Assembly: GCA_009392915.1 (NCBI GenBank)
Contig: CP045477.1
Span: forward strand, 1-64,000
DNA from: Candidatus Forterrea multitransposorum CG_2015-17_Forterrea_25_41
GTDB taxonomy: Archaea; Iainarchaeota; Iainarchaeia; Iainarchaeales; CSSED10-239
Reading direction: 5' to 3'
Length of the DNA: 64,000 nt
Position 1 is the stretch's first letter; the number at the start of each line of letters is the position of its first letter. The notes under the pieces are model-generated. The model was not told the DNA's origin. It saw nothing but the letters and a program-made list of their open reading frames with translations, and did no database searches. Positions 5,094 to 55,328 of this stretch are shown here, piece after piece. The position numbers and the translations under genes were made by a program.

Positions 5094-5159
5094 TCTAGAG
5101 TCTATATATAAAACACCTCATAATAAAAAAAAGAAAAATAGTTTTTTTAAAATAAAAAA

Positions 5160-5912
5160 CTATTCTTGGTCAACTCTTGGTGCTAAGAAATATCTAATAG
5201 CAGAAGAGCCGATTGTGTAATTAATTTCAAGTGGCATATCGTCTTTAAGTTTTAAAGTGATTATGCTTTTTGCATTCTTAATCATATTTTGTAAATAGTC
5301 TAAAGTATACATTGCTTTTGCTTTGCTTCCTGAAATTAAAAGATTATTATCATTTGCTTCAATCTCTTGTTTGAATTTCCCTTTACTACTTTGTGTTTCT
5401 AAATAAAATTTATTATTTTCAACTTTTAAAGTGATATGGGAGCTAAAAAGACTTGCATCTTTTAAACCTGCAAGTAATTGATCAGAAGAGATTTGAACTG
5501 TTACATCAAATTGTATTTTAGGAAGAGGTTGTTCTTGTTCTGATACATCTATTAAAGGGATATGGAAGCTTCTTTTTGATTTTCCAATAAGTTCTATTAA
5601 GATAAATGATTTATCATCTTTAATTTCTAAACTTAATTTATCGTCACTTGATGAGTGGTTTAAGATTTGTAAGAAATTATTTATATTTATTCCAAAAGCA
5701 ATATTTTTTTCATCATCTTTAATATCTACTAAAAATTCTTCAAATGAATCTTTTGGCATTACAAAATCAACTAAACTTATTTGTCCAGGATCTGTTGCTC
5801 TTAAAAACATTTTTTCACTATCGATTGTAAATAAACCTTCGTTTATTAATACTCCAATAGCATCCATACTTTTTTGGAATTCTTTTACATCTTTTATTAT
5901 TAATTTAATCAT
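5160..5912 (-). CDS. pcn: DNA polymerase sliding clamp PCNA
   Basis: 250 aa. The N-terminus MIKLIIKDVKEFQKSMDAIGVLINEG...LRATDPGQISLVDF...FEEF matches the archaeal PCNA pattern. Confidence 0.9.
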   Translation of the reverse strand: MIKLIIKDVKEFQKSMDAIGVLINEGLFTIDSEKMFLRATDPGQISLVDFVMPKDSFEEFLVDIKDDEKNIAFGININNFLQILNHSSSDDKLSLEIKDDKSFILIELIGKSKRSFHIPLIDVSEQEQPLPKIQFDVTVQISSDQLLAGLKDASLFSSHITLKVENNKFYLETQSSKGKFKQEIEANDNNLLISGSKAKAMYTLDYLQNMIKNAKSIITLKLKDDMPLEINYTIGSSAIRYFLAPRVDQE

Positions 5913-6497: not shown

Positions 6498-6887
6498 TTA
6501 TTTTTTCTCAATATATATTTTTTTATTTTCTTTTCTAAAGAGGATTGTTTCTTTTTTAATTTCTCTAAAATCTACTTTAATTTCAATATTACTTTCTAAA
6601 AAATATTCTTTTTCTTCATTTGATATTTTATATTTTGAATCTATTTTTTCAATAGTCCATGTCTTTTTAGGTAATGCTTGAATCTCTTCAGAATAATTTT
6701 CTAATATTTCAGAAATATCTATATTTCCTTGTAATTTTTCAGAAAAACTTTTAATCTCTCTATTATCTATTATTTGCATATTTTTAGAATAAAGAGAGGT
6801 TGCTTGAATAATAATTAAGGAAAGCACAACTACAATAGAAAGCGATATTAAGATATACTCTAAACTAACTTGTGCTTTTTCATTCAC
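6498..6887 (-). CDS. class III signal peptide (type IV pilin-like) protein
   Basis: N-terminus MNEKAQVSLEYILISLSIVVVL: short charged leader, Q at the putative +1 position, then a hydrophobic helix. Confidence 0.5.
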   Translation of the reverse strand: MNEKAQVSLEYILISLSIVVVLSLIIIQATSLYSKNMQIIDNREIKSFSEKLQGNIDISEILENYSEEIQALPKKTWTIEKIDSKYKISNEEKEYFLESNIEIKVDFREIKKETILFRKENKKIYIEKK

Positions 6888-6901
6888 AGTTAATTTTTCC
6901 T

Positions 6902-7093
6902 TTAGTCTATTTTTTCTATTTGTTTAAACACATCATCTGCTTTGTCATCAACAGTTTTATTTGCTTTAGTTGTTGTTTTTTGTAACTGTGTTACAACTAC
7001 TAAAACTATAGCGATTATTGCAGCTATTAAAATTATCATTTCAGCAGAAATTTGTGCTTTTTGATCTTTAAATAAATATTTTAATTTATTCAT
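6902..7093 (-). CDS. small class III signal peptide pilin-like protein
   Basis: KDQKAQISAEMIILIAAIIAIVLVV, the same KAQ-x-S-x-E motif as the neighbouring gene; 63 aa. Confidence 0.5.
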   Translation of the reverse strand: MNKLKYLFKDQKAQISAEMIILIAAIIAIVLVVVTQLQKTTTKANKTVDDKADDVFKQIEKID

Positions 7094-7169
7094 AATTCTT
7101 CAAATAATTTATTGGTTATAAGATTATTTAAACCTTTTGTTCTTTATTTTTATTAAATATAATTAATAA

Positions 7170-7919
7170 ATGATTATCATGCAAAGATTAATAATTGTAA
7201 CTGGTGCAACTGGTGATTTAGGTAAAGAATATGTGAAAGTTTATTCCAAATTATCAGAAAATAAAGTTTATGCTATTTCAAGGCGAAAAGAAGACTTTCC
7301 AATAGAAGGTGTAATTTATCTTAATTGTGATTTAGAAAATAAAGATATAACTTTAAATGAAATTAATAAAATTTCTTTAGAGCACACCACTGAAATAGTA
7401 TTTATTCATCCTGTTGGAAAATTTAAGTTTGAAGAAAATGGAGACTTAATAAATAGTATTGATCAAGAAATATTTAAATCTAATTTAGATAGTTTTCATA
7501 ATGTTTTAAACCCTTTATTATTATTAAGAAAAGATAAAAATATTTTAATTAAATTAATTGCTTTTGGATCTTTAAGTGATTCTTTTAATGTACCTTGGTG
7601 GATTTCTTATAGTAAATCAAAACTTGCACTGAGAGCTGATATGAAGTCAATTTCTTTTTCTAAAAAAAATATTTGTTCTCTTTTTTTAAATTTAAGTAGT
7701 GTGAAAACTTTTAATGAACATAAAACAAGACCTTTTGCAGAAACTTCTTTTTGGCTTTCAGTTGATGAAATTGTAAAGAGATCTTTATCTATAATTGATT
7801 CTTTAAAAGAAAAATATACTGAAATTAATTTATATAATAATTCTCCTGAATATTATGAAGGTTATTACAAAGATTTTAATTTTTTAAAAGAAAAATGGTT
7901 AAAAGAAATGAAGGGCTAG
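7170..7919 (+). CDS. short-chain dehydrogenase/reductase family protein
   Basis: TGATGDLG nucleotide-binding motif and YSKSK (YxxxK) catalytic motif. Confidence 0.65.
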   Translation: MIIMQRLIIVTGATGDLGKEYVKVYSKLSENKVYAISRRKEDFPIEGVIYLNCDLENKDITLNEINKISLEHTTEIVFIHPVGKFKFEENGDLINSIDQEIFKSNLDSFHNVLNPLLLLRKDKNILIKLIAFGSLSDSFNVPWWISYSKSKLALRADMKSISFSKKNICSLFLNLSSVKTFNEHKTRPFAETSFWLSVDEIVKRSLSIIDSLKEKYTEINLYNNSPEYYEGYYKDFNFLKEKWLKEMKG

Positions 7920-7961
7920 AAGTCTTCTTTTTATTTGTTTTTATCTATAATATATATATTT

Positions 7962-10253
7962 ATGATTAAATCAATATATCTTGAAAATTGGAAAACCCAC
8001 CTTGATTCTAAGCTTTCCTTTCAAAAAGGAACAAACATACTCTTAGGTGTAATTGGTTCTGGAAAATCAAGTGTTGTTGATGCTATTTGTTATGCTTTAT
8101 ATGGTACATTTCCAACACTTTCAAACAGGAAAATAACTTTAGATGAAACTATAATGTTTAAACCTGTACAAAAAGAAAGTTTTAAGGTTATTTTAGAGCT
8201 TGTTCAAGAAAATAAATTATATTTAATAGAAAGAGAAGTATTTTCTGGAAATAAATCAAACTCTGCAAAAGTATATCTTGAAGGAAAGTTATTGGCTGGT
8301 CCTAAAAAAAGTGATGTTGATGAATTTATTTCAAAACTTTTAGGTATTGATTATAATCTTTTTATAAAAGTTGTATATTCTCAACAAAATGAAATTGATT
8401 ATTTTTTAAAAATAGCTCCTTCTAAAAGAAAAGAACAGTTTGATGATCTTTTTGGTATATCTCATTTTGAAAATATTAAAGTTTCAACAAGAGAAATTGA
8501 TAGACTTTTAAATCATGAAATTGATAAAAATGAACTTTTATTAAAACAAATAACTACTCAAATTTCAAATTATAATATAGAAGAACTTTTAGAAAAAGAA
8601 AAAGAAATAGCTGAAAAAATAACTTCTCTTGAAAAAGAAATTTTAGAAAAAGAAGTAAAAACTTTTTCTTTAAGTAAAGTAATTTCTGAAAAGAAGCTAG
8701 TTAAAGAAAAGCATGAATCCTTAACTTCTCAAATATCTTTATTTTCGTCCAGGCTTGAAGACTTTAATAAAGAATATACCTCTCTTTTAGAAAAAACTAA
8801 TCTTTCTTCTAAAGAAGAACTTGATCTCTTTGAAAAAGAGGTTTTTAAGAAAGAAAAATTCTTTAAAGAAAAACAAAATAAAAACAAAGAAACTGAGATT
8901 TTAAAAAAATCTTTAGATAACAAAATTTCTTTTTATGAAAATAATATTTTTCAAAACCAAGAAAGGATAAAAGAGCTTCTTTTAAAAATAGAAAAAGAAG
9001 AATTAACTATTCCTTTAATAGAGGAAAAGAAAAAATATCTTTTAGAAGAAATTGATTCTCTTAATATTTTAAAAATATCTTTACTTTCAAAACAAAAAGA
9101 TTTAGAAAAATCTTTTTATGAAATTTCTAAAGGCTTTTCAAACTGTCCTGTCTGTCAAACCCCTTTTACTGCAGATAAATTAACTGAAACTAAAGAGCAT
9201 ATAGATAAAGAGCTTTCAAGTCTATCTTTAAACCTAAAGGATTATTTAGAAAAAATAAAAGAAAAAGAAGATTTATTAAATCTGTTAAAAATAAAAGAAA
9301 AAACTTTAGAAAGAAATTTCTTAATTGAAAAACAAATTGAACAATTAAACAAAATAATTCTAGAAAATACTTATTTAAAAGAAAATGCCTTAACTGAAAT
9401 TAATTCTTTAGAAAAAATAGATGACTTGTCTGCTTTAGAAAAAGAAATTTTAAAAATAAAAGAGAGTCTTTCTCTTAAAAAAGAACTTTTAAAAATATCT
9501 GAAAAAATAAAAGAATACACCGAAAAAACAAAATTACAAAAAGAAGAGCTTTCAAAAATAAATTTTTCTCAAGAAGAATATCTAAATCTTTTAACAGATT
9601 ATAAAGGCTTAGAAAATAATTTCCTGCAAATAAAAGAATCCTTAACAAACTATAAATCCTTAAAAGAAAATTTAAAAAAACAATTAGAAAACCTAACCTC
9701 TCTTTCAAAACAAAAAGAAGAAGTAAGCCTTTCTTTTACAAAAATAAATAATAAAAAACAAGATCTTTCTTATTTTTTAAAAGCAATTGATAATAGCCAA
9801 CTACAGTTAAGAAAAGTTTTAATAGATAACATAAATCAAGCTCTTTCAATCATCTGGCCAAAAGTATATCCTTACAAAGATTATTTATCAGCAAGATTAA
9901 ATGCAGATAATGATTATATCTTAGAGGTCTTAACTTTAAAAAATAACTGGATAAGGGTTGAAGGTTTATTAAGTGGAGGAGAGAGGGCTTGTGCTTCACT
10001 TTCCATAAGGATTGCAATTTCTTTGATTCTTACAAAGAAATTAGGCCTTTTAATTCTTGATGAACCAACACATAATTTAGATGAAAAATCAATAGAGGCT
10101 TTATCAAATGTCTTAGAGGAAGAGCTTCCTGATCTTGTTGAGCAAATATTTATTGTGACTCATGATAATAAGCTTCTTGAAACAGTAAATGCAACTAAGT
10201 TTATAATAGAGAGAGATAAAGAAAACGATTCTGCTTCAAGAGTTAATTTTTAA
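7962..10253 (+). CDS. rad50: DNA double-strand break repair ATPase Rad50
   Basis: Walker A GVIGSGKSS, long coiled coils, zinc hook CPVCQ, signature LSGGE, Walker B LLILDEPT, H-loop VTHD. The ATG at 7962 is preferred over the upstream TTG of the ORF track. Confidence 0.9.
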   Translation: MIKSIYLENWKTHLDSKLSFQKGTNILLGVIGSGKSSVVDAICYALYGTFPTLSNRKITLDETIMFKPVQKESFKVILELVQENKLYLIEREVFSGNKSNSAKVYLEGKLLAGPKKSDVDEFISKLLGIDYNLFIKVVYSQQNEIDYFLKIAPSKRKEQFDDLFGISHFENIKVSTREIDRLLNHEIDKNELLLKQITTQISNYNIEELLEKEKEIAEKITSLEKEILEKEVKTFSLSKVISEKKLVKEKHESLTSQISLFSSRLEDFNKEYTSLLEKTNLSSKEELDLFEKEVFKKEKFFKEKQNKNKETEILKKSLDNKISFYENNIFQNQERIKELLLKIEKEELTIPLIEEKKKYLLEEIDSLNILKISLLSKQKDLEKSFYEISKGFSNCPVCQTPFTADKLTETKEHIDKELSSLSLNLKDYLEKIKEKEDLLNLLKIKEKTLERNFLIEKQIEQLNKIILENTYLKENALTEINSLEKIDDLSALEKEILKIKESLSLKKELLKISEKIKEYTEKTKLQKEELSKINFSQEEYLNLLTDYKGLENNFLQIKESLTNYKSLKENLKKQLENLTSLSKQKEEVSLSFTKINNKKQDLSYFLKAIDNSQLQLRKVLIDNINQALSIIWPKVYPYKDYLSARLNADNDYILEVLTLKNNWIRVEGLLSGGERACASLSIRIAISLILTKKLGLLILDEPTHNLDEKSIEALSNVLEEELPDLVEQIFIVTHDNKLLETVNATKFIIERDKENDSASRVNF

Positions 10254-21126: not shown

Positions 21127-23268
21127 TTATTCTTTCTTTATTTTTTCATTTATTGTTTTTTCTTGATATTCAATTTTTAATTCTTTTAAAGTATCAAGTC
21201 CAAATTTTCCAACTAAATTAATAAATTTGTCAGTATTATTTTTAATATCGTTAGCGCTCTTTATACCATTATTAAAAAGTCTTCTAGCTCTTACTCTTCC
21301 AATATTTCTAAGTTCAACTAATGGAACAAGTTCTTGTTTAATACCATACTTAATCCTAGAAAGAAGATTTGAATATTCTTTTATAGTTATAATACTTGAT
21401 TTAGTGTGTTTTAAAAGTTCAATTGTAGAGTGACAGATCCATTCTGCTCTTGATATTAAATCTCTTATTTGTCCTGGTGTGGTATTATACTCATCAATAA
21501 TGTAGTTTTCTTCTTTTTCTTCAATCCAGTCAGCTATAAGTTTTGTTAAATATATTTTTTGTAAAAGATAAATATCTTCATAATCAAAGAAAATATTAGG
21601 TCTAATTTCTTCAAAGATTGTAAATATATTATTTTCTTTTTCTTGTTTATATTTTAAATATGGATACATTTCAGATGTGTTTGAAATAGTAAATATTTTT
21701 TCCATAATTTTAGTATCTTTATTTTTTTTAATCTCAAGATCTTTTAAAATATTATTTGCAGATAATGGATCAATGTATAAATAACATACTTTTTTACCAA
21801 GAGAAGTTATTAAAAAATCATTTTCATTTTTCTCTAAAAAACCATATTCATAGAATTCATAGACAATATCTTGTATATTTTTTCTAATTTCATGATTATC
21901 TCCATATGTGAAATAGTAAAATGTTTTTGATAAATAATTAATAAGTTCTTCTATACTTTTTAGTTCATTAACTAAAATCATAGAAAGCAAATGTCCTCTA
22001 AGAATATTTATTTTAGAAAGTTGAGAATCTATATTGGAAGGACCAGAAATAATATATGTGTTGTATATCTTTGGAATATCACTTTCTTTATTTACAACAC
22101 AAATAGCTTCTCCTTTTTTATCATATTTAGGTCTTCCTGCTCTTCCTGCCATTTGTTGAAATTCATTAACCGGTATTGGAACCATTGATCCTTCTGAAAA
22201 TCTAAACACACTATTAATAACAACTCTATATGCAGGTAAATTAATTCCTGCTGCAAGAGTTGGTGTTGCAAAAATTGCTTTAATATTTCCTTTTTTAAAA
22301 TTATTTTCAACAATTTCTCTTTGTTTATAAACAAGTCCTGCATGATGGAAAGCAGACCCCATTAAAAGAGAAAGAGAAAGTTCTTCACATTGTTTTGTAG
22401 GATTTTCTAAGGCTTCAAGAGCTTCTTTTGAAATTTGTCTTAGTTTTTTATATTCTTCTGGATTTATATGGGTTGATATTATTTTTCCATATTTTTTAGC
22501 AAACGACATTGCATTTTTTCTAGATGCACAAAAAACAATAATTTGTTTTTCTTTTTTTAAAGTGTCTCTAATGATTGATCCTAAATTAATGTTTTTAACT
22601 GCAAGAGAAGTTAAATCTTCTTTTCTATCTTCAAAATAAATAGAGTCGTTATAAAAAACCCCAGTCTCTAAAGGAACTGGCCTATAATTACTTAAAACTA
22701 GTTTTGCAGAAAGCCAATCAGATATTTCTTTTGAATTTTTAATAGTTGCAGATAAACCTAAAAGAGTAATTTCCTTGTAGTTATGTTTTAGTTGTGTTAT
22801 TATTACTTCTAAGGTAGATCCTCTGTTTGATCCAAGTTCATGTATCTCATCAATGGTTAAAAGTCCAACTTGTTTAAGCCAGGATGGCTCATGTCTTATG
22901 ATTGAATCAAATTTTTCGTATGTTAAAAATAAAACATCATAACTTTCAAGATATTTATTACTTGAATCAAGATCTCCTGTTGAGAGTGCTATTTTTACAT
23001 CAAGTTCTTTTGCAAACTTTCTTTTAGTTTCAAGATAATGTTCTGTAGTTAATGCTTTTAAAGGAGATATATATATTACTTTTTTTTTCTTATTTAAAAG
23101 ACAATCAAGCATATACATTTCAAAGACTGTTGTTTTACCTGAAGCAGTAGGTGTTGTTATGAGTGTATTTTCTCCTATGTTTTCTTTTGCTAAGATTTGC
23201 ATAGGGTTAAGTTTATCATAACCGTTAATCTTTAAGATTTTTTGAATAATTTCTTCTTTTGAATGCAT
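21127..23268 (-). CDS. hel308: Ski2-like DNA helicase Hel308
   Basis: Motifs TPTASGKT, DEIH, SAT and QMAGRAGR, with C-terminal HhH-like domains; 713 aa. Confidence 0.85.
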   Translation of the reverse strand: MHSKEEIIQKILKINGYDKLNPMQILAKENIGENTLITTPTASGKTTVFEMYMLDCLLNKKKKVIYISPLKALTTEHYLETKRKFAKELDVKIALSTGDLDSSNKYLESYDVLFLTYEKFDSIIRHEPSWLKQVGLLTIDEIHELGSNRGSTLEVIITQLKHNYKEITLLGLSATIKNSKEISDWLSAKLVLSNYRPVPLETGVFYNDSIYFEDRKEDLTSLAVKNINLGSIIRDTLKKEKQIIVFCASRKNAMSFAKKYGKIISTHINPEEYKKLRQISKEALEALENPTKQCEELSLSLLMGSAFHHAGLVYKQREIVENNFKKGNIKAIFATPTLAAGINLPAYRVVINSVFRFSEGSMVPIPVNEFQQMAGRAGRPKYDKKGEAICVVNKESDIPKIYNTYIISGPSNIDSQLSKINILRGHLLSMILVNELKSIEELINYLSKTFYYFTYGDNHEIRKNIQDIVYEFYEYGFLEKNENDFLITSLGKKVCYLYIDPLSANNILKDLEIKKNKDTKIMEKIFTISNTSEMYPYLKYKQEKENNIFTIFEEIRPNIFFDYEDIYLLQKIYLTKLIADWIEEKEENYIIDEYNTTPGQIRDLISRAEWICHSTIELLKHTKSSIITIKEYSNLLSRIKYGIKQELVPLVELRNIGRVRARRLFNNGIKSANDIKNNTDKFINLVGKFGLDTLKELKIEYQEKTINEKIKKE

Positions 23269-23405
23269 ATTTATTTTTTTAAAAAATTTATTTTTCTGTT
23301 TATATATTATTTTTTTCTTTCTATATATTATTATAAAGAAGATAATATAATACCTCTTTTTATTAATTAATTACTTTTAAAAAGATTATTATAAATAATA
23401 TATTT

Positions 23406-23609
23406 ATGGATATAAATAATAAATTATCTAAAAATCTAAAGTTAGCTTTTAAAGCATATGAAACAAGAAGTATTTCTTTATCAGAGGCAGCAGACATCGC
23501 TGGTATTTCATATAAGGATTTTTTAGATAAAATGGCTGTAAATAATGTTAAGTTTGATTTTTCAAGTATTGGAAAAGATGTGAACTATTTTGTTAAGAAA
23601 ACTAAGTAG
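23406..23609 (+). CDS. UPF0175-like small HTH protein (putative orphan antitoxin)
   Basis: SISLSEAADIAGISYKDFLDKM matches the UPF0175 pattern. No PIN/DUF3368 partner follows; the IS element starts 17 bp downstream. Confidence 0.4.
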   Translation: MDINNKLSKNLKLAFKAYETRSISLSEAADIAGISYKDFLDKMAVNNVKFDFSSIGKDVNYFVKKTK

Positions 23610-23653
23610 TTTAATCTTTTTTTATAATTGTGTTGCATAACTCTTTTTAAAAG

Positions 23654-23699
23654 TATTGTCTAACCTATTTTATTACTAGATAAAGGAGGTTAGACAATA
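23654..23699 (+). promoter_or_regulatory. 13-bp perfect stem-loop occluding the transposase SD and start codon
   Basis: TATTGTCTAACCT (23654-23666) pairs with AGGTTAGACAATA (23687-23699). The right arm covers part of GGAGG and the A of the ATG. Confidence 0.5.
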
Positions 23700-24661
23700 T
23701 GAATATTAAGAACGAAAAGATTAATAAAAGGAACTGGTCAAAGATAAATTATGGAAAAACAAGACAAATCTTGTTTTTACTAGATAAAAACATTATTTTT
23801 AGTGAAAATGAAAGACTAGTTTCCCAAAATAAAAACAAACCAGGAAGACAATTTATATATAGTGATAGAATAATAGAACTATTAATTGATCTTAAAAATT
23901 ATTTTAAATTTGATTATCGTAAACTACAGGCATTCTGCCTGTTGTTTAATAATGTTATAAAAATAAAAACACCTGACTTTACAACTATTTGTAGAAGAAT
24001 GCACAAATTAGAATTATTTCTAAAAAATATAAAAACAAAAAAAGAACCAACCTTTATAGCTATAGATGGTTCTGGACTTCAAACTACTAATCGAGGAGAA
24101 TGGCTTAGATTAATACACAAAAAAGGAAAAATAAACTTAAGAAATGGATTTGTAAAATTAGTGATTGCAACAGATGTTGCATCTGGAGAAATAACTGGAG
24201 TGTATATTTCAGATGATTCTGATTTTGAAAATAAAAGCTTATCAGATTTATTATACCAAACAATAAATAATCAAAACCAAGAAGTCAAAGGACTTCTTGG
24301 AGATGGGGCATACGATTCTTATGATAACTTTGATATGCTTGATGATATGGGAATAAAACCAATTATCAAAATCAGAAAGAATGCAATTACAACAGAACCT
24401 AATGACGATTATTTAAAAAGAAGAAGAAAACTTGGAAAAAAGAAAAAAATAAAAAGAATTGAAGTTGCAAAAAAGCAACTTAAAAATGTAGATGACTGGA
24501 AACAAAAAAATGAGTATAATAAAAGGTGGGTTGTTGAATACACGTTTAGTGTATTCAAAAGACTATTCGGACATAGTGTGTACTCTAAAAGAAAGAAATA
24601 TGTCAAAAATGAAGTAATTTCTAAAGTAAATTTGTATAATAAATTATTAAATATCAATTAA
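23699..24661 (+). CDS. DDE transposase, IS4/IS5 superfamily
   Basis: D (IAIDGSG), D (LLGDGAYDS) and an exact Y-x2-R-x3-E-x6-K signature (YNKRWVVEYTFSVFK). Confidence 0.85.
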   Translation: MNIKNEKINKRNWSKINYGKTRQILFLLDKNIIFSENERLVSQNKNKPGRQFIYSDRIIELLIDLKNYFKFDYRKLQAFCLLFNNVIKIKTPDFTTICRRMHKLELFLKNIKTKKEPTFIAIDGSGLQTTNRGEWLRLIHKKGKINLRNGFVKLVIATDVASGEITGVYISDDSDFENKSLSDLLYQTINNQNQEVKGLLGDGAYDSYDNFDMLDDMGIKPIIKIRKNAITTEPNDDYLKRRRKLGKKKKIKRIEVAKKQLKNVDDWKQKNEYNKRWVVEYTFSVFKRLFGHSVYSKRKKYVKNEVISKVNLYNKLLNIN

Positions 24662-24791
24662 GAAAAAAATAAAATGAATTAAAAAAAGAAATAAGCTAAA
24701 AATATTGTGTAAAACACAATATTTGTGCAACACAATTTTTTTTATCTTTTTTAGTTACATTTATAAATATAATCTTCTTTAATATTAGTAC

Positions 24792-24804
24792 CTTATATAT
24801 ATTA
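24792..24804 (+). promoter_or_regulatory. TATA-box-like element upstream of the DGR target gene
   Basis: CTTATATATATTA lies 15-27 bp upstream of the ATG at 24819, between the IS right end and the gene. Confidence 0.3.
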
Positions 24805-24818
24805 TACTCAGATCATTT

Positions 24819-26192
24819 ATGGCTATAGACAAAAGATTTTTTTTAGGGATAACTATTAGTAAAAAAAGAAAAGCAATTTCTCCTTTAATTGCCACTATTC
24901 TTTTAATAGTTGTTGCCGTTGCAATTATAGCTATTATTGTTTCCTGGGGAAAAGGATTTACCAATGATTCTTTAAGCAAAGCCTCTGGTCTTGAAATTTA
25001 CACTGAATCAGAAACTTCTTTTTACTTGCAAGTAAAAAATTCAATAAACGGAAGAACTGTTGTTCAATATAATCCTCCTTATAATTCTCCTCACACCTCT
25101 TTAACCATAACAGGTTATAGCCTACATGGTAACACGAATATTAATCCCATAGATCCACCAATTACAATAACTGCAAACCAAACTGCAGTTATTGATCATG
25201 GTATTTTATTTCCAGAATTAAATTTAGTTTTATATTTGGATAATGATCGAATGATTATTAAAACTGATCTTTTACAAACTATTAAATCTCCTCTTTCTTG
25301 TCCAGAAGGTTATGTTTCTGTTCCAGGAAACCACTTATATGGAACTATGAATGAAAGTGGGGGTTTTTGTGTTTCAAAATATGAGATGAAAATGGATAGA
25401 ACAGGAGATGGAATAGGAAATCTTGTAGCTGATTATCCTGATTGTAACACCGGTTCTTTAACATATAATACTTATAGTTATGAATTATGCCCTACACCAG
25501 GCACTTTAGTTTCTACTCCAGAAGGTTCTCCCATAGCAAGAATCACACAAACTGAAAGCATATCAGCCTGTGAAGCTATTGGTGGTCATTTAATAACAAA
25601 TAACGAATGGATGACCATTGTACGAAACATAGAACAAGTTCCATCTAATTGGTCAGGTGGAGCAGTTGGTGATGGCTACCTTCCAAGAGGGAATTCATCT
25701 TCTTCAGGAGCTATGGAAGGCTTTGATCAACTTTCAGGAACTACCAAAAGAACCTTGACCTTAACAAACGGAGAGGTAATTTGGGATTTAGCAGGAAATG
25801 TAAGACAATGGACCAGTGACACTATTCAAAGAAAGGACCAGCCTGATGGTTTTAATAATGTAGATGATAGTAATAATACTTCTGGTTTTAATTGGTTTGA
25901 TTATTTTAAGGGCGGTGGAGTAGATCAATATATTTATTCTGATAATTTAGGTAACACCACCTTAAAGTATAAAGATTTATTTTTATTAACTAGTAATACT
26001 TATAATGCAACAGATAATGGTGTTGGAAGGATTTATACTTATAGTGATTTTAGTGATACTAGTACAACTGAGTACGCGTTTTTGCGCGGTGGTCACTGGG
26101 GCAATGGCACTAATGCCGGGGTCTTGCACCTGGTCTTGAACAAGACTCCTGGGTCCCGGAGCATCCTCATCGGCCTGCGCTGTGTCAAGTAG
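24819..26192 (+). CDS. DGR target protein: archaeal pilin-type class III signal peptide, linker, FGE/C-type-lectin-fold domain with C-terminal variable region
   Basis: N-terminus KKRKAISPLIATILLIVVAVAIIAIIV (DUF1628-like). FGE-sulfatase-like motifs SKYEM, GGHLITNNEW, WDLAGNVRQW, RGGHW and IGLRCVK. The last ~39 codons are the VR matching the TR downstream. Confidence 0.9.
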   Translation: MAIDKRFFLGITISKKRKAISPLIATILLIVVAVAIIAIIVSWGKGFTNDSLSKASGLEIYTESETSFYLQVKNSINGRTVVQYNPPYNSPHTSLTITGYSLHGNTNINPIDPPITITANQTAVIDHGILFPELNLVLYLDNDRMIIKTDLLQTIKSPLSCPEGYVSVPGNHLYGTMNESGGFCVSKYEMKMDRTGDGIGNLVADYPDCNTGSLTYNTYSYELCPTPGTLVSTPEGSPIARITQTESISACEAIGGHLITNNEWMTIVRNIEQVPSNWSGGAVGDGYLPRGNSSSSGAMEGFDQLSGTTKRTLTLTNGEVIWDLAGNVRQWTSDTIQRKDQPDGFNNVDDSNNTSGFNWFDYFKGGGVDQYIYSDNLGNTTLKYKDLFLLTSNTYNATDNGVGRIYTYSDFSDTSTTEYAFLRGGHWGNGTNAGVLHLVLNKTPGSRSILIGLRCVK

Positions 26193-26195
26193 TTT
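26075..26195 (+). repeat. DGR variable repeat (VR)
   Basis: 121 bp aligns without gaps to 27300-27420. There are 13 mismatches, 12 of them at TR adenines. GC-rich compared with its surroundings. Confidence 0.9.
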
Positions 26196-26232
26196 TTAGA
26201 AAAAATATATTTCATCCCCAAACCATGTATTT

Positions 26233-26263
26233 AGACGGGTGAGACGGCAAGACGGCCAGACGG
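26233..26263 (+). repeat. four tandem AGACGG motifs in a GC-rich patch downstream of the VR
   Basis: AGACGGgtgAGACGGcaAGACGGccAGACGG with 9/8/8-bp spacing. No ORF covers it. Confidence 0.6.
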
Positions 26264-26362
26264 AAGAAGCCATGGCAACCTAAACGTTTCAAGATTGTTT
26301 TTGCAAAAAAATGAAAAAACGTATTTGTGAAGTTTTAAAAAAAAGAAATGAGTGTGATTTTT

Positions 26363-26396
26363 GCAAATTTTTTTGATTTTTTTCAAAAAAATTTGC
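26363..26396. other. perfect 13-bp inverted repeat (AT-rich hairpin)
   Basis: GCAAATTTTTTTG, an 8-nt loop, then CAAAAAAATTTGC, between the DGR target gene and the first Avd-like gene. Confidence 0.5.
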
Positions 26397-26498
26397 TAGC
26401 CGTTAAACCAAATGGTTTTTTAATGTAAAAATAATTTTTATAATAATTAAGTTTTAAAGAAAAAATACTTTATATCTTGGACAAACAATGTGATTTAA

Positions 26499-26885
26499 AT
26501 GAGTTTAGTTGGAAATGAAAAAGGAATTCTAAATTTTGGTGTTTACAAGGAGCTTTTCCCAATCGTTATTGAAACTTATAATTTTTTAGAAAATAATAAA
26601 TCTTTATTTAAAGTAGATTTTGTTTATACAGATACTGTTAAAAATTTAATAGATATTCTTTCTTTTCTTTCCAAAGGGTATAATAAATTTCATTCTAATG
26701 AAAAATCTTTACTTTACTCTTATTCAAGAGATTGTGTTTCTACAACCCAATCTAATCTTTTAATATTATCTGAACTTAATAAAGATCTCTCAAAAGAAAA
26801 AACCTTATATTTTTATAATCAATTTGAGGATAAAATAAAGTATTTTAATGGTTTAATAAAAAAGATTGAAGAAAATAAAAACTAG
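26499..26885 (+). CDS. divergent four-helix-bundle (Avd-like) protein
   Basis: 128 aa with predicted helical repeats that loosely parallel Avd (VYKELFPIVIETYNFL..., LLILSELNKDL..., YFNGLIKKIE). Positioned directly upstream of avd. Confidence 0.4.
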   Translation: MSLVGNEKGILNFGVYKELFPIVIETYNFLENNKSLFKVDFVYTDTVKNLIDILSFLSKGYNKFHSNEKSLLYSYSRDCVSTTQSNLLILSELNKDLSKEKTLYFYNQFEDKIKYFNGLIKKIEENKN

Positions 26886-26896
26886 GGTATATTATT

Positions 26897-27226
26897 ATGT
26901 TATTTGACTTAAAGTTATATAAAGAAACTTATAACTTTTTACTTTATATTTATCCTGAAATAAATAAATTCCCTAAATCAGATAAATATTCTTTAGGAGA
27001 GGATATTAAAAAAACAACTATTTCTTTAATGTCAAATATTGTTCTTTTTTCAAAGCATAATGAAAATACTTTAAAAGAAGCAGATAAAAACTTAGAATTA
27101 CTAAGAATATATATTAGGCTTTCTTTTGATTTAAAAATAATCTCTTTTAAAAAATATGAGGTTATTTCAAGGCAATTAAATGATATTGGTAATTTATTAG
27201 GTGGTCTTTTAAAACAAAAGATTTAA
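26897..27226 (+). CDS. avd: DGR accessory variability determinant (Avd; four-helix-bundle / 23S rRNA-IVS protein family)
   Basis: LYKETYNFLLYIYPEINKFPKSDKYSLGEDIKKTTISLMSNI matches the family pattern. 109 aa, located between the target gene and the TR. Confidence 0.8.
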   Translation: MLFDLKLYKETYNFLLYIYPEINKFPKSDKYSLGEDIKKTTISLMSNIVLFSKHNENTLKEADKNLELLRIYIRLSFDLKIISFKKYEVISRQLNDIGNLLGGLLKQKI

Positions 27227-27299
27227 ATATTTTTTCAACTAATAGTTATGTTGTTCTTTTAAATAAAAAGAATAGGGCTTTTACAGAAAAAAACAGGTG

Positions 27300-27420
27300 C
27301 GCGTTTTTGCGCGGTGGTAACTGGAACAATGGCACTAATGCCGGGGTCTTGAACCTGAACTTGAACAATACTCCTGGGAACCGGAACAACAACATCGGCC
27401 TGCGCTGTGTCAAGTAGTTT
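27300..27420 (+). repeat. DGR template repeat (TR)
   Basis: Non-coding copy of the VR, rich in AAC/AAT triplets in the VR frame (G N W N N G T N A G V L N L N L N N T P G N R N N N I G L R C V K). Lies 258 bp upstream of the RT gene. Confidence 0.9.
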
Positions 27421-27422
27421 CT

Positions 27423-27445
27423 CCTTATTATTTTTAATAATAAGG
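27423..27445 (+). other. perfect 10-bp stem-loop immediately 3' of the TR
   Basis: CCTTATTATT, loop TTT, then AATAATAAGG, followed by a T-run. Confidence 0.55.
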
Positions 27446-27678
27446 TTTTATCAGAGTTTGTATGTTTATTTTTTTATCTAAAAAAACATATAAAGCGAAT
27501 ATTTTAAAAAACTACATCTGTAAAATGTTTCCTGATTGCACATAATGTGTGCCATAAGAACTATTTTGTTTTTATGTTAAAAAATCAAATATAAAGATAA
27601 GTTATTACATTTAGTATTTTTATAGTCTGTAAAAAGAAATCTGTAATAACTCTTAACTTTAAATAAGGCTTTTTAAAA

Positions 27679-28695
27679 ATGAAATCATACAATAACCTTT
27701 GGCAAGAATTCACTTCTTTTAAAAATATTTTTAATGCCTATAAAAAAGCAAGAAAGTCCACACCAAACAAAAAGTATATCTTGCAATTTACCACAAATTT
27801 AGAAAAGGAGTTATTCTTATTACAAGATCAATTAATTTCAGAAAATTTTCAATTTTCTCCTTACAGAAGTTTTAAAGTTTATGAACCTAAAGAAAGAACA
27901 ATAAGTGCACCTATTTTCAGGGATGTTGTTGTTCAGCATGCCATAATAAACATTATTGAACCTATTTTTGATAAAACCTTTATAGATAACTCTTTTGCTT
28001 GTAGAAAAGGAAAAGGCACACATAAAGGGCTTTTTGAAATTAAAAAAGTAATTCAAACCCCAAATCATCCAAAATACTATTTAAAACAAGATGTAAAGAA
28101 ATACTTTCCTTCAGTTCATAAACCTACCTTAAAAGAAATAATTTTTAAAAGAATTAAGGATGCAAGATTACTTTCTCTAATATATAAAATAATTGATAGT
28201 TATTCTTTTGATTTAAATCAAATTCAAAAAGGTATCCCTATAGGTAATTTAACCTCTCAGTTGTTTGCAAATATTTATTTAAACCATTTAGATCAGTATG
28301 TTAAGCATTCTTTAAAAATTAAACATTATTATAGATATGTAGATGATTTTTTAATATTTTCAAACAATAAAAGAAAATTACATGTTTTTAGAAGAAAAAT
28401 AAAATTATTTTTAAGTAAAGAACTATTATTAGATGTTCCAAAAAATAAAACTTATATAAACTTAGTAAGTAAAGGAGTTGATTTTTTAGGTTATAAGGTA
28501 TTTCCTTCAAACATAAGATTAAGAAAATCAAATCTTAAAAGATTTCTTCTAAGACAAAATAAAAATAACTTTCTTCTAAAAAAAAATCAAATTTCTAAAC
28601 TTAACTATAATTTTTCTCTTTTTTCTTTTTTAGGTTATGCAAAGCATGCAAACTCTTATAATCTCTTAAGTACTTTAAATATTAATGAGTTATAG
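27679..28695 (+). CDS. DGR-type reverse transcriptase
   Basis: RT motifs SAPIFRDVVVQHAI, IPIGNLTSQLFANIYL (DGR-typical [I/L]GxxxSQ) and YVDDFLIF. 338 aa, adjacent to the TR. Confidence 0.9.
   Translation: MKSYNNLWQEFTSFKNIFNAYKKARKSTPNKKYILQFTTNLEKELFLLQDQLISENFQFSPYRSFKVYEPKERTISAPIFRDVVVQHAIINIIEPIFDKTFIDNSFACRKGKGTHKGLFEIKKVIQTPNHPKYYLKQDVKKYFPSVHKPTLKEIIFKRIKDARLLSLIYKIIDSYSFDLNQIQKGIPIGNLTSQLFANIYLNHLDQYVKHSLKIKHYYRYVDDFLIFSNNKRKLHVFRRKIKLFLSKELLLDVPKNKTYINLVSKGVDFLGYKVFPSNIRLRKSNLKRFLLRQNKNNFLLKKNQISKLNYNFSLFSFLGYAKHANSYNLLSTLNINEL
28589..28687 (+). repeat. 99-bp direct repeat, copy 1 (3' end of the RT gene)
   Basis: Identical base for base to 30138-30236. Confidence 0.9.
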
Positions 28696-28838
28696 TTTAT
28701 TTTTATTATGGGCACTTGAGCGTCTATTTTAAACTTAAATTATAATCTTTTACTAACGCACTATACCTTAATTATAATCTTCTATCAAAAGACTATATTT
28801 AAAAATGTTTTTATTATATATTATATTAGTGATAAAAT

Positions 28839-30104
28839 ATGGATAAAGCTTTTTTAAGAAACGTTGTTTCTGACCAGTATGAAGATTTAAAAGATGTTTC
28901 AAAAACAATACAAAGATATGATTCAAAAGAAATAGCGCGCTTTGTAAATAATCCTGCTATATCTATAATTTCAGGAGTAAGGCGTTGTGGTAAGTCCACT
29001 TTTTTAGAGCAGATAATAAATTTATATTATAAAAATAACTTTTATTATTTTGATTTTTCTGATGAAAGAATTGCAAAATTTGAAACTGCTGACTTTCAAA
29101 CATTATATGAGGTGTTTTTAGAAAAATTTGGAAAAAGACAGGCTTTTTTCTTTGATGAAATACAAGGAGTTCCAGAATGGAATAAATTTGTTAATAGAAT
29201 GAAAAAGATTGGGCATAAATGTTTTGTAACCGGTTCAAATTCAAATTTGTTAAGTCAAGAAATATCTACTTATCTAACAGGAAGACATATTGATAAAATC
29301 TTATTCCCTTTTTCCTTTAAAGAATATTTAACGTATAAAAATATTAATGTAGATTTAGATTCTACAAAATCAAGAACCTTAATTATTAAAGAGTTTAAAA
29401 ATTACTTTAAAATAGGTGGTTTTCCAGAGGTTGTTTTAACAAACGATACTTCAATTTTATTAAATATTTATTCTGACATAATTTCTAAAGATATAATTGA
29501 AAGATTTAGGATTAATGATGTTTCTTTATTTAAAGAATTTTGTAATTATGTAATTTCTTTATCTACGAATGAATTTACTTTTAAATCATTAAAAGATAAT
29601 TTTAATATTCAGAATATTACTACTGTTTCAAACTATCTTGATTATCTTAAATTAACTTACCTTGTTTATGAAGTTAAAAGATTTTCTTCTTCATTACAAA
29701 AATTAAATAAATATCCAAAAAAATATTATTGTATAGATAATGGTTTATTAAATAAAGTGGGTTTTGGATATTCAATAGAGGAAACTAGATTTTTAGAAAA
29801 TCAAGTTTTTATTGAACTTTGGAGAAATAATCCGCAATCTGAAATTTATTATTATAGAGATAAGGATAATAAAGAATGTGATTTTTTATTGTTAAATGAT
29901 AGAAAAGTAGTTAAGGCTATTCAAGTGTGTTTTGCTTTTAAAAAGATAGATACTAGAAAAAGAGAAATAGAAGGTTTACTATCTGCTTTAAAAGAGTTTA
30001 ATCTAAATTATGGCGAAATTATTACTTTTGAGCATAAAGAAAAATTAAAGATAGATGGAAAAGTAATAGAGATGATTCCTGTATATGAGTGGTTATTAAA
30101 ATAA
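28839..30104 (+). CDS. AAA-family ATPase (AAA_14 + DUF4143 type)
   Basis: Walker A SGVRRCGKST, Walker B FFFDEIQ; 421 aa. Sits between the two 99-bp repeat copies. Confidence 0.75.
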   Translation: MDKAFLRNVVSDQYEDLKDVSKTIQRYDSKEIARFVNNPAISIISGVRRCGKSTFLEQIINLYYKNNFYYFDFSDERIAKFETADFQTLYEVFLEKFGKRQAFFFDEIQGVPEWNKFVNRMKKIGHKCFVTGSNSNLLSQEISTYLTGRHIDKILFPFSFKEYLTYKNINVDLDSTKSRTLIIKEFKNYFKIGGFPEVVLTNDTSILLNIYSDIISKDIIERFRINDVSLFKEFCNYVISLSTNEFTFKSLKDNFNIQNITTVSNYLDYLKLTYLVYEVKRFSSSLQKLNKYPKKYYCIDNGLLNKVGFGYSIEETRFLENQVFIELWRNNPQSEIYYYRDKDNKECDFLLLNDRKVVKAIQVCFAFKKIDTRKREIEGLLSALKEFNLNYGEIITFEHKEKLKIDGKVIEMIPVYEWLLK

Positions 30105-30137: not shown

Positions 30138-30236
30138 AAATTTCTAAACTTAACTATAATTTTTCTCTTTTTTCTTTTTTAGGTTATGCAAAGCATGCAA
30201 ACTCTTATAATCTCTTAAGTACTTTAAATATTAATG
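30138..30236 (+). repeat. 99-bp direct repeat, copy 2 (orphan duplicate of the RT 3' end)
   Basis: Identical to 28589-28687. It is no longer attached to an RT ORF. Confidence 0.9.
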
Positions 30237-30336
30237 GTTTTATAGTGTAGATTCTCTTTGCATTAAAAATATTGTTTTTGAAAAAAACAAAGCTTTAAAT
30301 TTTGTTTATTTATATAATATATTAGGTGAAAGCAAT

Positions 30337-37617: not shown

Positions 37618-37699
37618 GCAGAGGTGGCGGAGTGGTCAAACGCGCCAGCCTTGAGAGCTGGAGCCTTGCGCTACACGAGTTCGAATCTCGTCCTCTGCG
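37618..37699 (+). tRNA. tRNA-Ser (anticodon UGA)
   Basis: Acceptor GCAGAGG/CCTCTGC. Anticodon stem CCAGC/GCTGG with loop CTTGAGA. Long variable arm and T-loop TTCGAAT. Confidence 0.9.
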
Positions 37700-37730
37700 C
37701 TTTATCTTTTAAAATATAGGAATTTTTATT

Positions 37731-38063
37731 ATGATTAAAGAAAACATTTCTTTTCAAGATTTTTTAAAACTTGATATAAGAATTGGAACAATTGTTGAGG
37801 CTGAAGCTGTTGAGGGTTCTGATAAATTAATAAAATTAATAATTGATTTTAAAGATTTTAAAAGACAGATTTTAGCTGGTATTAAAACAAAATATCAACC
37901 AACTGATTTATTAAACAAACAAATTCCTGTTATTGTAAATTTAGAACCTAGAAAAATGATGGGTTTTGAAAGTCAAGGAATGATCTTAGCTGTTGGAGAT
38001 AAAACTTTAGATGCTTTACTTTTACCATCTGAGCCTGTATCGGAAGGCTCGATTGTACACTAA
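37731..38063 (+). CDS. tRNA-binding domain protein (Trbp111/CsaA/EMAP-like)
   Basis: FLKLDIRIGTIVEAEAVEGSDKLIKLIIDF...GFESQGMILA matches the OB-fold tRNA-binding domain pattern. Confidence 0.8.
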   Translation: MIKENISFQDFLKLDIRIGTIVEAEAVEGSDKLIKLIIDFKDFKRQILAGIKTKYQPTDLLNKQIPVIVNLEPRKMMGFESQGMILAVGDKTLDALLLPSEPVSEGSIVH

Positions 38064-38084
38064 TTTTTTTTTAAAACTAAAAAT

Positions 38085-38166
38085 GCAGAGGTGGCGGAGT
38101 GGTCAAACGCGCAAGCCTGGAAAGCTTGAGCCTCGTGCTACGCGAGTTCGAATCTCGTCCTCTGCG
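38085..38166 (+). tRNA. tRNA-Ser (anticodon GGA)
   Basis: Acceptor, D and T arms are the same as in the first tRNA-Ser. Anticodon stem CAAGC/GCTTG with loop CTGGAAA. Confidence 0.9.
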
Positions 38167-38197
38167 CTTTTTTCTTTTTTAATTTAATATTTATTTT

Positions 38198-38286
38198 GCA
38201 GAGATGGCGGAGTGGTCAAACGCACAAGTTTCGAAAACTTGATTAAGGTTTTTTCCTTTACATGAGTTCAAATCTCATTCTCTGCG
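38198..38286 (+). tRNA. tRNA-Ser (anticodon CGA)
   Basis: Acceptor GCAGAGA/TCTCTGC. Anticodon stem CAAGT/ACTTG with loop TTCGAAA. Long variable arm AAGG-TTTTTT-CCTT and T-loop TTCAAAT. Confidence 0.85.
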
Positions 38287-38462
38287 TAGCTGGTTTCGGT
38301 CAGCTAGCACCCAATGATTTTGCGTTTGTTAACGCTTATTTAAACTTTCTTTTTAAAAGAAGTGATTTTCCCCCAAAACTTTTTTTCTTTAAAAATTGTG
38401 TTTTAAAAATTTTTAATCTATTTTATATCTATTTAAAATACTTTTGCCTCTCTTTAATATTT

Positions 38463-55210: not shown

Positions 55211-55328
55211 TGTTAGCGGCCATAGGGATGGAGAAACACCTGGACCCTTTCCGAACCCAGAAGTTAAGTCTATTGCCGTTTTAGTTCGCTGTTAGTTCAT
55301 GCTAGTAGCGTCTTTAAAGCTGCTAACA
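55211..55328 (+). rRNA. rrf: 5S ribosomal RNA (orphan, not linked to 16S/23S)
   Basis: GCGGCCATAGG...CCGAACCCAGAAGTTAAG core. Terminal helix TGTTAGCGGC/GCTGCTAACA. Confidence 0.85.

Follow-up and report, generated by a model that had tools for sequence, protein, structure and literature searches.

The DGR cassette and the sequence downstream of its VR

A complete diversity-generating retroelement (DGR) spans positions 24819-28695 of the window, the whole 64,000-nt stretch of DNA that was analysed (Table 1). The cassette has the hallmarks of a DGR, namely an adenine-specific pair of template region (TR) and variable region (VR), a reverse transcriptase (RT) gene beside TR and the gene for Avd, and a VR at the 3' end of the target gene, where it makes up the final 121 nt of the ORF. 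Twelve of the 14 VR/TR mismatches fall at TR adenines, which bears out the DGR context that the original prediction had read at this locus. RT relatives encoded in DGR cassettes are 35-87% identical to the RT of the window, the target homologues include SUMF1/EgtB/PvdO family proteins assigned in the sources to Candidatus (I)ainarchaeum, and the nearest protein matches of the window are from DPANN archaeal MAGs (labelled 'archaeon' or Candidatus (I)ainarchaeum in the sources). The IMH of this DGR is identical to its IMH* over 28 nt, so that VR and TR are distinguishable only by the sequence that lies downstream of them.

The accessory ORF O128 belongs to a small family (51 cluster representatives) and is predicted by AlphaFold2 (pLDDT 82) to form four helices, for which Foldseek returned 2gsc and 2rld at TM 0.7-0.8 and also 8ub7_E and 4dwl. 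No Pfam or PDB sequence match was found for O128, and profile-profile comparison with Avd (hhalign) was negative, with no sequence homology demonstrable between the two. The predicted stem-loop directly 3' of TR is a candidate counterpart of the Avd-binding stem-loop in DGR RNA, which in other DGRs has been described at this post-TR position, at the 5' end of the spacer RNA (bioRxiv 10.1101/2023.10.23.563531). On the target side an AT-rich hairpin, starting 168 nt beyond the last position of VR/TR homology and ~100 nt beyond the repeat array described below, folds at -12.5 kcal/mol (z = -4.9), a value matched by 0 of 200 shuffles. A hairpin occupies the equivalent relative place in relatives, those of loci L006 and L007 having GC-rich tips and GAGA/GAGAA loops.

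Table 1. Features of the DGR locus (positions in the window)
Feature	Position	Strand	Evidence or remark
DGR target gene, 457 aa, with C-terminal FGE-sulfatase/C-type-lectin-like domain carrying VR	24819-26192	+	Pfam PF03781, E 7.4e-07
Variable region (VR)	26072-26195	+	124-nt direct repeat with 27297-27420, 89% identity
IMH-equivalent VR 3' end	26168-26195	+	identical to TR 3' end 27393-27420
Spacer with two A/T-rich boxes, AAAAAATATATTTC and TGTATTT, the latter immediately 5' of unit 1	26198-26232	+
Four-unit direct-repeat array (core of the finding)	26233-26263	+	uniqueness, conservation, VR specificity
GCCATGGC palindrome	26269-26276	none	present; not conserved in relatives
AT-rich hairpin, perfect 14 bp, 6-nt T-rich loop	26363-26396	none	DNA fold
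128-aa accessory ORF (O128)	26499-26885	+	predicted four-helix bundle, Avd/S23-like fold
Avd (accessory variability determinant)	26897-27226	+	Pfam bAvd PF22296, E 2.2e-21
Template region (TR)	27297-27420	+	124-nt repeat with VR
10-bp stem-loop directly 3' of TR	27423-27445	+	RNA fold, z = -1.8 only
DGR reverse transcriptase (RT)	27679-28695	+	Pfam RVT_1, E 1.5e-21

Four AGACGG hexamers at 8-9 nt spacing had been predicted downstream of VR, and all four lie exactly where they were placed, starting at 26233, 26242, 26250 and 26258 on the + strand (start-to-start spacings of 9, 8 and 8 nt) and beginning 38 nt beyond the end of VR/TR homology at 26195. They are the only copies of AGACGG on either strand of the window, in which 1.08 would be expected by chance, and they form its sole exact-hexamer chain of at least three members. 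At 26242-26267 Tandem Repeats Finder detects an array of period 8. A four-member exact-hexamer chain at 6-10 nt spacing arose in 0 of 100,000 shuffles of the surrounding 86-nt patch, shuffles that, like the per-locus ones, keep mononucleotide content only; as background, chains of at least four similar 5-mers at 6-10 nt spacing occur in ~2% of the genome's 125-nt windows. The patch itself (26205-26290, 13-98 nt past the target stop) is as GC-rich as originally described, with 47.7% GC and 67.7% within the array; the window as a whole has 24.6% and the remaining intergenic sequence 19.2%. Only 0.46% of 86-nt windows are equally GC-rich. The GCCATGGC palindrome that the original prediction had picked out is indeed present; it is not conserved in relatives and is probably incidental. 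Judged by conservation, the functional core is the 31-nt array, as neither the wider GC-rich patch nor the palindrome is conserved. The array also fits a formal G-quadruplex motif (G2-3 N6 G2 N6 G2 N6 G2).

No fold or known RNA family accounts for the region. Rfam annotates only three tRNAs and a 5S rRNA in the window and nothing at 26000-27700, and folds of 26190-26300, which the original prediction had proposed to examine, have energies no better than those of shuffles on either strand (DNA z = +0.98; RNA z = -0.20 and +0.14). RNAalifold applied to five relatives gives -4.5 kcal/mol with no covariation and no consensus structure, so a structured RNA or DNA element is ruled out and the array is best described as a linear repeat and not a hairpin of the Bordetella type. 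A scan for promoters and terminators found nothing above shuffle expectation.

The array is also unlike a coding sequence. Contrary to the earlier statement that no ORF covers the patch, a mechanical ORF list includes a minus-strand ORF of 51 aa with a TTG start (26231-26386) that overlaps it, and this overlap is what speaks for a decayed GC-rich gene or an unannotated small ORF. The ORF is unlikely to be a real gene, since the 8-9 nt unit spacing breaks the frame and the sequence after the array diverges with indels in relatives. Nor can the units be a peptide repeat, their period not being a multiple of 3. Rfam has no matching family, no conserved structure is present, and conservation is confined to the hexamer units. 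We put the probability of a gene remnant, which the original prediction had named as a refuting outcome, close to nil.

Array conservation and linkage to VR

Loci for comparison were taken from target-protein relatives in species-representative genomes and metagenomes and from contigs encoding O128; they are related to each other, and counts among them are not counts of independent events. Relatives with targets 41-80% identical to that of the window have about four units with a 7-9 nt period in the same place downstream of VR, the archaeal arrays beginning 13-58 nt after the stop and their units being separated by spacers of 1-3 nt. The array is therefore conserved in homologous DGR loci, where the original prediction had proposed to look, with the architecture kept across relatives and the unit sequence differing by lineage. 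The unit is (A/T)GACGG, four times, in L085, L160, L078, L002 and L158 (target identity 60-80%, excluding L160 and L158; L160, found via the O128 search, has a longer target with PKD hits); TATCGG, TAACGG or AATCGG, four times, in L006, L080 and L007 (58-72%); TCTGG or TCTGA, four times in L004, L082 and L081 and three times in L106 (48-53%); and of the CTGGA type, five times, in L005 (41%). L092 (43%) combines TATCTGG with three copies of ATCGG. AGACGG is the unit most divergent from the common ATCTG-type unit, so that the sameness of the element rests on position, unit number, period and intermediates such as L092, whose mixed array bridges the ATCTG type and TATCGG, with a looser connection to the AGACGG of the window. 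Two loci (L084, L105) have no clear array by the criteria used.

Substitutions are concentrated between the units. Within clades 9 of 68 unit columns are variable versus 14 of 20 spacer columns (Fisher p = 2e-6), and within the GACGG clade 1 of 24 versus 4 of 7 (p = 0.005). In an alignment of five lineages the array is the best-conserved block, with 26 of 31 columns invariant, while the flanks have 12 of 32 invariant columns just upstream (26196-26227) and 11 of 67 just downstream. The sequence between VR and the array is thus partially conserved in archaeal relatives; TATTT ahead of the array is invariant in the five lineages, and boxes resembling the two A/T-rich boxes occur in L006, L007 and L092. 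The distribution of variable columns indicates that selection is on the units, not the spacers.

This pattern bears on the possibility that the array is a neutral by-product, left as scars of imprecise cDNA integration or by replication slippage beside a hyper-recombinogenic site. Unit number does range from 3 to 7 across clades, and in L146, the locus with seven units, TR/VR homology extends into the first one to two of them, as such scars might. However, units are conserved and spacers variable, most lineages have four units, the unit of the window is unrelated to the TR flank, and the rest of the intergenic region has diverged where the array has not. We consider a neutral origin very unlikely.

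The array accompanies VR and not TR. Among the 27-28 cassettes in which both repeats were located, chains of at least three units follow VR in 19 of 28 flanks and TR in 0 of 27, and one further array in this set lies after the second VR of L146. Detection was heuristic and conservative, and several arrays visible by eye scored below threshold. A seed-free autocorrelation measure gives the same contrast, with larger values in VR flanks than in TR flanks (paired Wilcoxon p = 1.8e-5) and individually significant in 14 of 27 VR flanks versus 0 of 27 TR flanks. For the window the chain scores are 5 (VR flank) and 1 (TR flank) and the autocorrelation p values 0.003 and 0.43. Five targets that have no Avd or RT within 4-5 kb (L081, L106, L006, L007, L092) nevertheless carry arrays, which indicates that the array belongs to the target 3' end and not to the accessory operon. 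In low-GC archaeal loci with a GC-rich VR, not counting four whose VR is joined straight to the RT side, arrays are present in 12 of 14, whereas paralogues lacking a GC-rich VR have none (0 of 8). By these counts arrays occur only with live-looking VRs. An element that is non-coding, tied to VR and absent after TR fits a role in homing or target recognition.

Arrays in CPR bacteria and phages

The element extends beyond the archaea. CPR-labelled relatives carry arrays, with TATCT, AATCT, ATCTG, TTTGG and CTTGG among their units, and in these a GC hairpin with a GAA, GGA or GNRA-type loop usually follows at once. A phage set of 80 loci was assembled via RT alignment; adenine-specific TR/VR pairs were found in 68, giving 67 unique VR flanks. 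With an array defined as at least three exact trinucleotide repeats at 6-9 nt spacing, 35 of the 67 VR flanks have one versus 2 of 67 TR flanks (each with three units, and weaker). Most phage arrays begin within ~12 nt of the end of VR/TR homology. Exactly four units are present in 27 of the 35 VR arrays and five in 6, the core is CTG in 25, and the period is 7 or 8 with the consensus W-A-A-T-C-T-G-A (AATCTGA). The usual phage layout is VR, array and then a GC hairpin with a GATA, GAAA or GGTA loop, and array and hairpin occur together in Vibrio phage VP58.5 and Bacillus phage BalMu-1. In Bordetella phage BMP-1 the hairpin lies 4 nt after VR, there is no array, and IMH differs from IMH*; its absence there is a possible reason why work on the model system did not bring the array to light. 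About half of the 67 phage VR flanks have no clear array by the criteria used, and the element is not universal among DGRs. An exact-pattern scan of viral contigs for AGACGG arrays returned mostly period-9 matches, presumed to be in-frame coding repeats, and was uninformative. Across archaea, CPR bacteria and phages the array is conserved in architecture, specific to VR flanks, fixed in orientation and widespread, and four is the preferred number of units.

The wider set of units weighs against DNA structure acting by itself, with no specific protein, through slipped-strand DNA or a sense-strand G-quadruplex of two tetrads, either of which would keep the target open or pause replication, as has been proposed for the hairpin of the Bordetella system. 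Direct repeats can slip, and the array of the window matches the quadruplex pattern. Were repetition all that counted, the units should be identical to one another, yet little would hold a given unit constant within a lineage. The four G-runs are missing where the unit is TCTGA, TATCT or AATCTGA, and the patch folds at shuffle level with no consensus structure. Structure alone is, in our estimate, quite improbable.

A gene-expression signal read by a protein, either in the 3'-UTR of the target mRNA (stability or termination) or as promoter, operator or leader of the O128-avd-TR-RT operon, would suit the intergenic position of the array between target and accessory operon, and in archaeal relatives we read an A/T-rich box 23-27 nt upstream of unit 1 as TATA/BRE-like. 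Tandem short operator boxes exist elsewhere, the metboxes of MetJ being an example. However, remote targets with unrelated downstream genes have arrays (L081, L085, L106), the arrays of L004, L005, CPR bacteria and phages start right after the stop with no upstream A/T box, and the hosts include both bacteria and archaea, whose transcription machineries differ. Nor was a terminator-like site found at the array, and paralogues with no live VR have no array. Terminators follow IMH in only a minority of DGRs, according to a published survey (PMC5758913). Together these observations make an expression signal unlikely.

The CTG core brings in host replication factors, for instance primase, which might start on the lagging-strand template at the units and so place an Okazaki start beside VR. 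E. coli DnaG starts at CTG, which is the commonest phage core, and homing prefers the orientation that makes the sense strand the lagging-strand template. Against this, archaeal units are of CGG or TGG types, primase specificities differ between the bacterial hosts, and the archaeal primase is unrelated. Changes in DnaG level in E. coli had no measurable effect on homing, a result that its authors call inconclusive (PMC12875486). We regard primase sites as highly improbable.

Three more specific readings were set aside. Pairing of the array with RNA of the post-TR spacer was considered, as phage TR flanks have a conserved GYCAGAAG that is complementary to TCTGA units; arrays of AACTGA or ATCCGC keep CAGAAG all the same, with no co-variation between array unit and TR-flank motif, and CCGTCT was not found anywhere in the window. 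Back-up stop codons in three frames would suit the TGA of many phage units, but CTG is better conserved than TGA, no stop codon occurs in the archaeal TATCGG arrays, and the AGACGG array of the window has a single TGA. O128 as an Avd paralogue that reads the array was suggested by its Avd-like predicted fold, but not by profile-profile comparison, and O128 cannot be the general reader since CPR and phage arrays exist where O128 does not.

Proposed role in VR recognition

The 31-nt array is very probably a functional element linked to VR, and we think it reasonably probable that it acts in homing. The reading that we favour, with a similar degree of confidence, is that the array is the version found in this lineage of a direct-repeat element that marks VR 3' flanks and aids recognition of VR in retrohoming. 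As delineated here, the element lies on the sense strand shortly after VR/TR homology ends and comprises three or more units of 5-7 nt, most often four, repeated every 7-9 nt. With IMH and IMH* identical over 28 nt some downstream cue is needed, and it has been argued that recognition must extend downstream where the two are identical (PMC5758913). The array would help the retrohoming machinery to take VR as the recipient. The mutagenised cDNA, being antisense, would have to pair with the VR sense strand, and in that arrangement the 5' end of the paired cDNA, still attached to the particle of RNA, Avd and RT, would adjoin the sequence 3' of IMH, where the array lies. The repeated sense-strand units could then serve as a docking site for a particle made by the DGR itself, of which the Avd pentamer carrying RT and cDNA is the most plausible form; once docked, this particle would keep the cDNA in register or prevent the site from closing. 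Such a docking or address site would be used on an exposed, single-stranded sense strand; homing has been found to prefer a sense strand that serves as lagging-strand template, by a mechanism described as unknown (PMC12875486).

Hosts of array-bearing DGRs span Vibrio, Bacillus, CPR bacteria and DPANN archaea, and the reader is thus more likely to be DGR-encoded (Avd, RT or RNA) than a host factor. Avd as the reader is a tentative suggestion that we hold to be possible but not probable. In the Avd pentamer the same residues of different protomers hold flipped-out bases (bioRxiv 10.1101/2023.10.23.563531), and with its repeated identical pockets the pentamer makes a reiterated motif a plausible ligand. 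Against this, all five Avd protomers of the Bordetella structure are already contacted by the RNA stem-loop, so that a further ligand could bind only after a hand-over or on another pentamer, and the seven units of L146 are a poor fit to a simple pentamer match. A bolder version, which we judge rather unlikely, would make the array the general targeting signal of a large DGR clade, absent from the Bordetella model, with four sense-strand units and, in most relatives, the adjacent hairpin jointly engaging the five equivalent inter-protomer pockets of the Avd pentamer in the cDNA-bearing particle and docking the cDNA on the single-stranded lagging-strand template of VR. If so, each lineage would have its own address in the unit sequence, co-evolving with the DGR proteins, and transfer of that address would suffice to redirect diversification to a new gene.

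The closest known counterpart by position is the hairpin/cruciform downstream of VR in Bordetella phage BPP-1, which has a 7-10 bp GC-rich stem and a 4-nt GRNA loop lies 4-34 bp downstream of VR and is required for efficient retrohoming (Guo et al. 2011, PMC3240598). The array resembles it in lying just 3' of VR/IMH and in being absent after TR, and from its placement and surroundings it may take part in the recognition or efficiency of retrohoming. The array differs in consisting of direct repeats with no stable fold, and is not an inverted repeat; BPP-1, like BMP-1, has its hairpin 4 nt after VR and no array. The window has no GC-rich hairpin with a GRNA loop within 34 nt of VR, nor a GC hairpin with a GNRA- or GRA-type loop within ~100 nt of the array, and has instead the AT-rich hairpin at 168 nt. 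The original prediction had placed the patch at the Bordetella-equivalent position with a repeat-based architecture of its own. The tie to VR stands, with the array absent after TR and with protein binding or enhancement of homing, both suggested in the original prediction, as putative roles. But the array does not substitute for the hairpin, as most relatives, phages included, have both, with the array between VR and hairpin and directly adjoining the latter. On this comparison the array is not an archaeal replacement of the Bordetella-type hairpin.

Two further likenesses concern what might bind the array. The Avd-binding stem-loop offers a parallel in that a short single-stranded stretch and a hairpin come after both TR and VR, although that stem-loop is RNA, follows TR, is single and has no repeats. 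The TRAP 11-mer binds (G/U)AG repeats, and MetJ, a ribbon-helix-helix repressor, binds tandem palindromic 8-bp metboxes (AGACGTCT) in promoters. Their sites share with the array short units (3-8 nt), a fixed period and free spacers, a layout in which each unit would be read by one subunit or dimer, and the 8-bp period is common to array and metboxes. There is no homology to either system and no protein of this kind in the cassette, the AGACGGnn unit is non-palindromic, and the array occupies a 3' flank and not a leader or operator; no match to the ribbon-helix-helix family was found among the seven ORFs scanned (21127-30104).

A description of direct repeats after VR was not found in the open-access literature text that we searched. 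The array is probably a target-marking signal, as judged from the comparisons above. How mutagenised cDNA finds and replaces VR is described as poorly understood or unknown in papers of 2024 and 2026 (PMC12875486 among them). The known target-site rules, IMH plus hairpin, derive almost wholly from one phage in which the array is absent, and GC-rich inverted repeats were found in only 34% of DGRs in a published survey (PMC5758913). A countable array specific to VR would be an extra determinant, testable in the reconstituted DGR systems that are now available. In annotation it could set live VRs and remote targets apart from dead paralogues, and designers of retargetable DGR mutagenesis tools could draw on it. 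In the window it is the obvious candidate for what distinguishes VR from a TR with an identical IMH.

Finally, the array has a likeness to IMH/IMH*, being a cis-acting sequence at the VR 3' boundary that would contribute to the directionality between donor and recipient, with the difference that IMH lies inside TR/VR homology whereas the array lies outside it and has no TR counterpart. The units might also be repeated copies of the IMH core, which they resemble in sequence (cATCGGCc in the core, TATCGGc or AGACGGcc in the arrays), but that core codes for the conserved I/F-G-F-R-C protein terminus and the resemblance may therefore be due to chance.

Accessory ORF and cassette variation among relatives

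The 128-aa ORF (26499-26885 of the window), which lies between the AGACGG array and Avd, is predicted to form a four-helix bundle with an Avd/S23-like fold, and no sequence homology to Avd is detectable. The family is small (51 cluster representatives), and among the loci compared it is confined to archaeal cassettes, where it is always positioned directly upstream of Avd.

In four lineages (L001, L003, L079 and L087/L088) the diversified VR is fused straight to the sequence that usually follows the TR and then to the RT, and the array, 128-aa ORF, Avd and TR are all absent (junctions in the table). No TR-like repeat was found anywhere in about 10 kb of L003 and L087. An intact cassette is present in L002, which belongs to the same MAG as L003. 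The fusions represent either recombination between identical IMH and IMH* (the 3′ ends of VR and TR) or an assembly join across these same sequences. A separate truncation is found in L160-L162 (about 4790-5447), where the array, 128-aa ORF and Avd are all intact, the TR is cut off (…AACAACAACATCTCTAAAAC), and the RT gene is missing downstream of the broken TR, its place being taken by a SpoIIM-like ORF. The target of this cassette has a longer and different N-terminal part with PKD hits. The cassette may represent a DGR in decay or, alternatively, one served in trans.

The loci L158 and L159 (3676-3736), from one organism in two samples, have identical arrays and flanks and differ by a single base within the VR (…ggggcagcGtcgtcgg versus …ggggcagcCtcgtcgg), a difference consistent with ongoing diversification.

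Hairpins flanking VR and TR

A GYCAGAAG motif is conserved across the TR flanks of the phage DGR loci (L283-L362; e.g. L283 5817-5870); after it come first a stem-loop, with loops of the TACG/CAAG type, and next TCCAG. For many of these loci one fixed base separates IMH from IMH* (GCTTTTG in the VR versus GCTCTTG in the TR). Some archaeal relatives carry an additional short hairpin directly 3′ of the VR and upstream of the array (L006 and L105), and therefore the order of hairpin and array can be either way.

Genomic surroundings of the window DGR

The DDE transposase gene, situated between the archaeal helicase and the DGR target, looks like a recent insertion beside the DGR, because the corresponding gap in the syntenic locus L003 contains no ORF of at least 90 aa. 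At the other end of the DGR, the RT gene has a second copy of its final ~100 nt (28587-28690 and 30138-30238; 97% identity at the protein level), and the two copies flank an AAA_14/DUF4143 ATPase gene (28839-30104). This segment looks like an insertion of ~1.45 kb into the 3′ end of the RT, accompanied by a long target duplication; it is absent from L003, where the RT is directly followed by FKBP and proteasome genes.

Features of the window and of related loci
Feature	Locus	Position	Strand	Remark
PCNA gene	window	5160-5912	minus	one side of skew switch
Rad50/SMC-like gene	window	7935-10253		other side of skew switch
Archaeal helicase	window	21127-23268	minus
DDE transposase (DDE_Tnp_1)	window	23699-24661
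Extra post-VR hairpin	L006	646-663		AGCTGG-TTTTGG-CCAGCT
Extra post-VR hairpin	L105	5852-5870		AACTGG-TTTCGC-CCAGTT
VR-RT side junction	L001	1688
VR-RT side junction	L003	5692
VR-RT side junction	L079	1968
VR-RT side junction	L087/L088	5413

Within about 6500-8000 of the window the sign of the GC skew switches, near 7-8 kb, and genes also reverse their orientation there. Should this switch mark an origin of replication, the DGR target would be located about 18 kb from it and face outward, an arrangement in which homing is reported to be favoured in E. coli. Gene-strand bias could equally account for the change in skew. Elsewhere, three tRNA-Ser genes (anticodons TGA, GGA and CGA) cluster within 670 nt (37618-38287). 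No 16S or 23S hit was obtained within the 64-kb window, which carries a single isolated 5S rRNA gene (55212-55328).
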